Source: Escherichia coli (GTDB taxonomy: Bacteria > Pseudomonadota > Gammaproteobacteria > Enterobacterales > Enterobacteriaceae). Taken from it: DNA of 369 nucleotides. Made by a program: the position numbers and the translations under genes. Below the pieces are notes generated by a model. That model was not told the origin of the DNA, did not search any database, and was given only the letters and a program-made list of their open reading frames with translations. Positions 1 through 369 of this stretch are shown here, piece after piece; position 1 is the first letter of the stretch, and every line of letters begins with the position of its first letter. The stretch lies in the NCBI RefSeq assembly GCF_003334385.1, contig NZ_QOWN01000188.1; one strand, given 5' to 3'.

Positions 1-216
1 CAACGATTTGGCCGCCGCCTCAGCCTGTATGTGAACACGGCAGCGGAAGCCATCCGGGCGCTGTCGTTACAGGTGCCGGGCTTTCGCCGTCAGATGAACG
101 AAGGCTGGTACCAGATACGTATTGCCGGTGATGACACGGCACCGGAGGCGGTGTATGCCCGCCTTCACGAACCACTGGGTGAGGGAACGGTCATCCATAT
201 TGTGCCGCGACTGGCC
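1..216 (+). other. N-terminal ubiquitin-like (beta-grasp) portion of the gpI-like protein, N-terminally truncated by the window edge
   Basis: This stretch aligns with the N-terminal region of lambda gpI, which has been described as a ubiquitin-like fold. It shows an alternating hydrophobic and charged pattern typical of a small globular domain (LSLYVNTAAEAIRAL ... GWYQIRIAG ... GTVIHIVPR). The domain boundaries are approximate. Confidence 0.55.
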
Positions 217-369
217 GGTGCCGGAAAGGGCGGACTGCAGATTGTGCTGGGGGCGGCGGCCATCGTGGGCTCTTTCTTCACTGCCGGAGCCACGATGGCG
301 TTATGGGGTTCAGCCCTGGCAGCCGGTGGTTTTTCTGCCACCACGATGCTGTTTTCACTTGGAGCCAGC
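1..369 (+). CDS. I: Tail tip assembly protein I (lambda gpI family), internal fragment; both the start and the stop lie outside the window
   Basis: Frame 1 is open across all 123 codons, while frames 2 and 3 contain TGA stops (for example at 32-34, 95-97, 129-131, 180-182). Third codon positions are GC-rich, consistent with this frame. The translation shares blocks with lambda gpI as I recall it: QRFGRR, AEAIRAL, GWYQ(I/V)RIAG, VIHIVPR, QIVLGAAAI, GSFFTAGAT, LFSLGAS. By that recalled alignment the true start codon should sit roughly 60-70 nt upstream of position 1 and the stop a few hundred nt downstream. Confidence 0.9.
235..369 (+). other. Uncharged Gly/Ala-rich hydrophobic segment (predicted membrane-interacting or glycine-zipper-like region), continuing past the window end
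   Basis: Codons 79-123 (LQIVLGAAAIVGSFFTAGATMALWGSALAAGGFSATTMLFSLGAS) contain no charged residue (D, E, K, R, H) in 45 positions and are rich in Gly, Ala, Ser and Thr spaced among Ile, Leu, Val, Phe and Trp. This is long enough for one or two hydrophobic helices. The same character is present in the corresponding region of lambda gpI as recalled. Confidence 0.6.

Follow-up and report, generated by a model that had tools for sequence, protein, structure and literature searches.

The closest described relative of the protein analysed here is the tail assembly protein gpI of phage lambda (PF06805; TAPI of Iyer et al., 2006; PDB 8IYK, 8K35 and 9E7M). Cryo-EM has shown gpI to be part of the virion, as a trimer that plugs the lumen of the tail tip and grips the tape measure protein by its C-terminus. 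The resolved part begins at residue 135 (PMC10721106) or 134 (PMC12617516) and, in the closed tail, at residue 101 according to PMC11101478, which cites 8IYK/8IYL; residue 101 is the second glycine of a Gly-Gly pair (GG). The N-terminal domain of gpI is seen in no solved tail structure. Iyer, Burroughs and Aravind (2006; PMC1779556) proposed that the JAB domain of the neighbouring gene product K frees the ubiquitin-like (Ubl) domain of gpI, the cut being made at the last glycine of that domain. According to a conference summary of October 2025 (PMC12908700), the Davidson laboratory finds that gpK cleaves the Ubl from gpI only once gpI engages other tip proteins; biochemistry and mutants are given as the basis. 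Our literature search located gpK–gpI cleavage in this summary only and found no full paper and no mapped cut site. Removal of the Ubl by K has been reported experimentally at that level and is not a new idea. Publication of the gene, its fold, its pairing with K and the hypothesis of processing dates back to 2006, as the preliminary description of this DNA acknowledged for the processing proposal, and cleavage itself has since been reported by a specialist laboratory.

A second related plug is PA0640/PyoF9 of the Pseudomonas aeruginosa F-pyocin (PDB 25VF), whose K homolog is PA0639 and which has an N-domain and linker homologous to those of the window protein (hmmsearch E 1.7e-12) and of which the C-terminal portion alone is seen in particles. 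A 2026 preprint on the F-pyocin shows that stalled tips still contain the N-terminal region of PA0640 whereas mature particles lack it, and terms this a proteolytic checkpoint. Among the loci read, the closest relative (P0133; 48% identical over 98 aligned residues) is accompanied by a K with JAB and NlpC/P60 domains.

Ubiquitin-fusion precursors, which are cut after Gly75-Gly76, likewise consist of an N-terminal Ubl followed by an unrelated protein, with a short flexible tail after beta5 and a dedicated peptidase that removes the Ubl. Prokaryotic JAMM/Ubl processing pairs of the ThiS/MoaD class are represented by QbsD–QbsE, Mec+–CysO and HvJAMM1–SAMP. The locus studied here differs from both. 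Unlike in the ubiquitin fusions, a JAMM metalloenzyme from the adjacent gene serves as the protease, and not a general cellular DUB, and the literal GG lies 4 residues beyond LAGA, the equivalent of LRGG, and is not conserved. Unlike in the ThiS/MoaD-class pairs, the Ubl forms one chain with a structural protein, in cis, and is discarded, rather than being a carrier or modifier; the equivalent of the terminal GG is G-A/S, and the annotation of the 12-kb locus lists no E1-like adenylating enzyme and no partner for sulfur transfer.

The gene I homolog and its neighbour K

The window (the whole stretch of Escherichia coli DNA that was analysed, 369 nt) is open in frame 1 of the + strand across all 123 codons. 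Its DNA is 100% identical in three E. coli chromosomes and 90–99% identical in about 1,800 more, and its sequence also matches many Stx-converting and lambdoid phages. The 100%-identical locus (L001, from NZ_CP060083) is a lambda-type tail cluster with the order V-G-T-H-M-L-K-I-J, where V is the major tail gene and H the tape measure gene. The full-length gpI homolog has 226 residues and begins 23 codons upstream of the window, at an ATG (L001 5934–5936) that lies 66 nt before it, such that window residue n is full-length residue n+23; full-length numbering is used below unless the window is named.

Lambda gpI matches this protein end to end (phmmer, E 6e-96) with one 2-residue gap, and Pfam PF06805 (Lambda_tail_I) matches window residues 1–74 (E 2.4e-12). 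In the full-length protein the C-terminal domain aligns to the chains of PDB 9E7M, and homologs in the collected set match PHROG 32, ‘tail assembly protein’. The order of parts is that of TAPI (N-terminal Ubl, Gly-rich linker, hydrophobic helices and C-terminal plug domain), and in the annotated locus, read together with Pfam, K (JAB + NlpC/P60) and J (central fibre) flank the gene. The window covers an internal part of this lambda gene I homolog, which is an unremarkable E. coli prophage copy of a gene already studied in depth. Domain order, K-I-J synteny and the overlap of K with I are all shared with lambda, and the differences from lambda gpI are only allelic: AGAGKGG in the window stands against AGAKSGG in lambda, the inter-helix loop has a 2-residue insertion, and there are 3 extra C-terminal residues. 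The features of the window are collected in Table 1.

Table 1. Features of the 369-nt window (nucleotide positions within the window)
Feature	Position (nt)	Strand	Remarks
3' end of K homolog (JAB + NlpC/P60)	1..34	+	Frame 2, stop TGA nt 32-34, overlaps gene I; from RefSeq of the identical locus, translation and Pfam
Ubl beta-grasp core, window aa 1-70 (full-length 24-93)	1..210	+	5' incomplete; beta1 and the invariant G21 precede the window
Ubl tail L-A-G-A, window aa 71-74 (full-length 94-97)	211..222	+	Near-invariant Gly nt 217-219, Ala/Ser nt 220-222
Variable Gly/Lys-rich spacer G-K-G-G, window aa 75-78	223..234	+	Contains GG nt 229-234
Hydrophobic Gly/Ala-rich segment: H1, loop and start of H2 of the plug protein	235..369	+	Continues past the 3' end of the window

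The preliminary description had read A72-G73-A74-G75-K76-G77-G78 from the window, followed immediately by a hydrophobic segment, and had given a similar sequence for lambda. Both points hold: the GG (ggc gga) runs directly into LQIVLGAAAIVGSFF, the start of a 50-residue uncharged stretch (residues 104–153), and lambda gpI reads ...VAGAKSGGV..., with its G100-G101 ungapped at the aligned position. The homologous lambda residues are described as helices H1 and H2, predicted to be transmembrane (PMC11101478, PMC10721106). Across 79 full-length homologs G107, G144 and G151 of the hydrophobic segment are invariant.

The neighbouring K (L001 5291–6034) is indeed the JAB protein that had been expected there. 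Pfam assigns Prok-JAB to its residues 3–105 and NLPC_P60 to residues 111–224, and it carries an intact JAMM motif, HSHPGGLPWLSEAD (E...HxH-x7-S-xx-D). About 300 viral loci were gathered with six diverse single-protein medoid gpI queries. Of these, 276 extend far enough upstream, and in 267 of the 276 a two-domain K immediately precedes a Ubl-bearing I; when I is clustered at 70% identity, the pairing holds in 33 of 34 informative clusters. In the exceptions K is decayed, or other genes stand between it and I. The strict JAMM motif occurs in 230 loci and spacer-length variants of it in most of the rest. Across 40 diverse K–I pairs the JAMM residues E19, H68, H70, S78 and D81 are all invariant, and so, in the same pairs, is the NlpC/P60 pair C121/H187. 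The 12-kb locus has 11 annotated genes, all of them tail genes, and none is an E1-like adenylating enzyme (ThiF/MoeB/UbaA); this is a Ubl fold and not a conjugation system.

The pairing bears on a reading in which the JAB domain of K serves mainly in counter-defence, stripping host Bil-type ubiquitin-like modifiers from the central tail fibre, while the Ubl of gpI has a separate role, for example in keeping the hydrophobic helices soluble. Hör et al. raise counter-defence explicitly for DUB domains of siphophage tail assembly proteins, and Bil acts on the J-type central fibre, whose gene is adjacent to I. However, the idea is speculation in its source, and it leaves the near-universal pairing of JAB with a gpI-fused Ubl unexplained. 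K is also needed where Bil is not involved: lambda tail assembly depends on it (PMC12617516), and deletion of PA0639 from the F-pyocin gives tip-less tubes. We regard this reading as highly improbable as the main function of the domain, while noting that counter-defence would be compatible with removal of the Ubl by K, the explanation that we prefer, and need not exclude it.

The ubiquitin-like domain and its C-terminal end

A collection of 1.8 billion representative proteins yielded 3,273 hits, and an N-domain alignment of 62 sequences was used for structure prediction. The resulting AlphaFold2 model has a mean pLDDT of 90, with strands at residues 14–19, 29–33, 59–64 and 87–93 and helices in between; confidence drops after residue 93. 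Its modelled topology and its closest structural neighbours make the N-terminal region a Ubl with the beta-grasp fold, of the MoaD/ThiS/SAMP class. MoaD, ThiS and SAMP were not among the matches when PDB sequences were searched with a profile HMM built from the N-domain. The predicted fold and the Lambda_tail_I match uphold the beta-grasp assignment of the preliminary description. Its extent, given there as nt 1–234, stands in part: the Ubl does cover the 5' part of the window, but the domain starts upstream, with beta1 outside the window, and nt 1–34 also encode the 3' end of K.

In the model beta5 ends at R93, and by register L94-A95-G96-A97 takes the place of the L73-R74-G75-G76 tail of ubiquitin. 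An hhalign comparison with E. coli MoaD (MG1655) sets ...IHIVPRLAG96 on ...VAFFPPVTG80, at 26% probability and with a register uncertain by one residue. With G96 on MoaD G80, this weak alignment would make G96-A97 the equivalent of the terminal G80-G81. The GG, at 100–101, had been likened to the C-terminal processing position of ubiquitin; it falls beyond that position, which is occupied by LAGA.

The conservation pattern points the same way. Among the 79 full-length homologs P92 is kept in 78, G96 in 77 and A/S at position 97 in 69. Position 100, by comparison, is Gly in 31 homologs (29 have a gap) and position 101 is Gly in 63 (about 80%). The picture is similar in an independent set of 39 dereplicated viral clusters, where the residue four after the proline is Gly in 37 and the fifth is A, S or G in 38, while a literal GG within 7 residues after the G-[A/S] pair occurs in 18. 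By our reading of the tails, 14 of these 18 GG-bearing clusters have the GG abutting the hydrophobic segment; elsewhere GG is often swapped for AG, LG, VG or IG. The spacer itself varies in length, with 11–16 residues from the invariant tail Gly to the invariant Gly of helix H1. Nor does the presence of GG call for a special explanation in a protein of this composition: 17 of the 123 window residues are Gly, and GG occurs 2 times against 2.2 expected on shuffling, with a probability of 0.92 for at least one. As judged from these alignments, the near-invariant element at the domain end is P-x3-G-[A/S] (window G73-A74) and not GG, and the conserved glycine at the C-terminus of the Ubl is G96 (window G73). 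The di-glycine had been described as conserved, which overstates the case.

Two observations count against this emphasis. In clusters L193 (31 loci) and L220 the near-invariant Gly after beta5 is replaced by Ala or Val (IIPIPKARKNGG, IIPIPTVSKNAG), which indicates that Gly is not absolutely required at the position of G96. Conversely, the conservation of the second Gly of the GG suggests that this residue has some function. The K proteins of L193 and L220 have a JAMM spacer of 9 residues instead of 7 (HSHTGDGATTVPSATD), so that protease loop and substrate tail may co-vary in these clusters; the link is not clean, since L191 has a longer spacer yet keeps the Gly.

Proposed position and agent of the cut

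We propose, with a probability of about 0.6, that in this lambda gene I homolog the Ubl is removed by K during tip maturation through a cut at or next to window G73-A74 (G96-A97). The protein is built from a MoaD/SAMP-like Ubl, a tail and spacer that are short and rich in Gly, and two hydrophobic helices that run into a C-terminal domain, which forms the trimeric plug inside the tail tip. The Ubl would be a module for assembly only, removed by the adjacent K (a JAMM/JAB metallopeptidase joined to an NlpC/P60 cysteine peptidase) as the tip matures, and the hydrophobic and C-terminal portion alone would stay in the particle. The cut would fall directly after beta5, where other Ubls carry their terminal GG. 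The GKGG spacer, including its GG, would probably be retained as a flexible N-terminal end or helix cap (hinge) of the mature plug protein. Gene identity, fold, K–I linkage and the conservation pattern are taken from the present analysis, whereas the role of K as the cutting enzyme and the gating of the cut by assembly are taken from the literature.

Three lines place the scissile bond most likely at or near the G-[A/S] pair, which we infer to be the candidate site: the near-invariance of P-x3-G-[A/S], which GG does not share, the alignment of G96 with MoaD G80, and the reported resolution of residue 101 in the mature lambda tail. A further, indirect indication comes from a model of K joined by a linker to residues 1–113 of I, predicted with AlphaFold2 from a paired alignment (pTM 0.77). 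Residues 94–95, which belong to a tail of low pLDDT in the isolated N-domain model, become a strand in this chimera, and pLDDT falls below 50 from G100. Order followed by collapse from G100 is what would be expected if the tail docks on K up to about residue 99 and is free beyond it. The comparative data favour the G-[A/S] pair over the GG and so offer a concrete and cheaply testable prediction for mapping the site.

The preliminary description had instead put the candidate cut at codons 77–78, with the JAB peptidase of K cleaving right after G77-G78 (G100-G101) and releasing a Ubl that ends in ...AGAGKGG. GG is present in the window protein and in lambda, its second Gly is the better conserved of the two, and it sits at a boundary of order and disorder, both in the chimera and in lambda, where density is reported from about residue 101. 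The same report also tells against such a cut, because cleavage after G101 would exclude residue 101 from the mature tail in which it is said to be resolved. The first Gly and the literal GG are poorly conserved, a GG is expected from composition alone, and the pair lies off the Ubl terminus. It is also absent from PA0640: this F-pyocin homolog, which loses its N-domain, reads KQSG rather than GG, and its linker IGSKQSGLF keeps a G-S pair with a single Gly where the window has GG. We consider cleavage after the GG quite unlikely; the GG singled out at the outset is probably not the cut site.

The virion data agree with loss of the Ubl. K was not detected in lambda virions (PMC10721106). Mass spectrometry of lambda virions gave one gpI peptide with 9.87% coverage (PMC10721106, Table S2), which corresponds to 22 residues. 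The sole tryptic peptide that fits is 202–223; trypsin is assumed here, as the protease is unnamed in the methods, and gpI is a low-copy protein. The Ubl contains four well-sized tryptic peptides, none of which is reported in the lambda virion data, as would fit its absence from virions; the authors do not comment on this.

It might be asked whether K makes a site-specific cut at all. The N-domain could instead stay attached but disordered in particles, or be trimmed by host enzymes at an exposed, flexible linker, and the JAB domain would then bind or chaperone the Ubl. When E. coli expresses PA0640 on its own, the protein does lose its N-terminal region to host proteases, according to the F-pyocin preprint, and cleavage of the linker is therefore not strictly K-dependent. 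The structure papers call the N-domain unresolved and go no further, and the low confidence of the Ubl tail in the isolated model would suit an exposed linker. Against this, the invariance of the JAMM catalytic residues in the 40 diverse pairs argues for selection for catalysis, and in the F-pyocin protein the N-terminal part is stable in stalled tips and lost only on maturation. Cleavage of gpI by gpK is also what the conference report describes, and if the domains were retained, three folded 10-kDa domains would need to be hidden in or beside the tip lumen. We therefore hold the absence of a specific K cut to be unlikely, and the reading that we prefer remains one in which K cuts off the Ubl, at or next to G96-A97.

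K appears, from its invariant C121/H187 pair, to hold a second peptidase that is active. Since both of its peptidase sites are invariant and only one cut, removal of the Ubl, is accounted for, the NlpC/P60 domain might trim at a second site in the Gly-rich spacer, including the GG, and K might be a general maturation protease of the lambda tail tip. We think this very doubtful. The lambda tape measure protein is cut from gpH to gpH* within a region rich in Gly, and no protease is known for this step (PMC12617516).

Annotation and variant homologs

RefSeq/PGAP starts gene I at a GTG at window nt 31–33, overlapping the stop codon of K (GTGA), although the frame is open further upstream. This call shortens the protein by 33 residues, and the Ubl loses beta1, most of beta2 and the invariant G21. 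The same short start is found in database representatives P0001, P0009, P0017, P0019 and P0032, whereas lambda-like homologs begin at the upstream ATG. The truncated Ubl that results from the RefSeq start, here and in many database copies, would mislead domain-based annotation. Upstream of the window (L001 1–5280), frameshifts are annotated in gene L and in the tape measure gene, and a truncation in the major tail gene. The host prophage looks defective, and the K/I pair described here may sit in a decaying prophage.

Some full-length gpI homologs have C-terminal extensions of 150–380 residues beyond the plug domain (P0127, 580 aa; P0075, 432 aa; P0057, 375 aa; P0067, 370 aa); these extensions carry no PHROG annotation. 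A few loci have genes inserted between the otherwise tightly overlapping K and I (L140 153–1439, L142, L187 553–1407 and L007 513–1416). Judged by sequence, the inserts encode a small protein with a lipobox and one that is KilA/Bro-like, and the upstream gene in L007 matches Pfam Phage_pRha. An apparent absence of K within 1.5 kb upstream of I in L007, L140, L142–144 and L187 was rejected as such, because the inserts read as morons and the sister locus L145 has an adjacent K.

Natural gpI homologs that lack the Ubl were sought as possible cases of joint loss of JAB and Ubl. The five candidates (P0005, P0007, P0047, P0048 and P0085) were rejected as chimeras, in which the C-terminal domain of gpI is in frame with fragments of DNA methyltransferase, terminase, major tail, major head or tail fibre proteins. 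Judged by their sequences, they are most likely large deletion scars in decayed prophages. P0006, P0020, P0081 and P0084 are chimeras of K and I, also of the deletion-scar kind.
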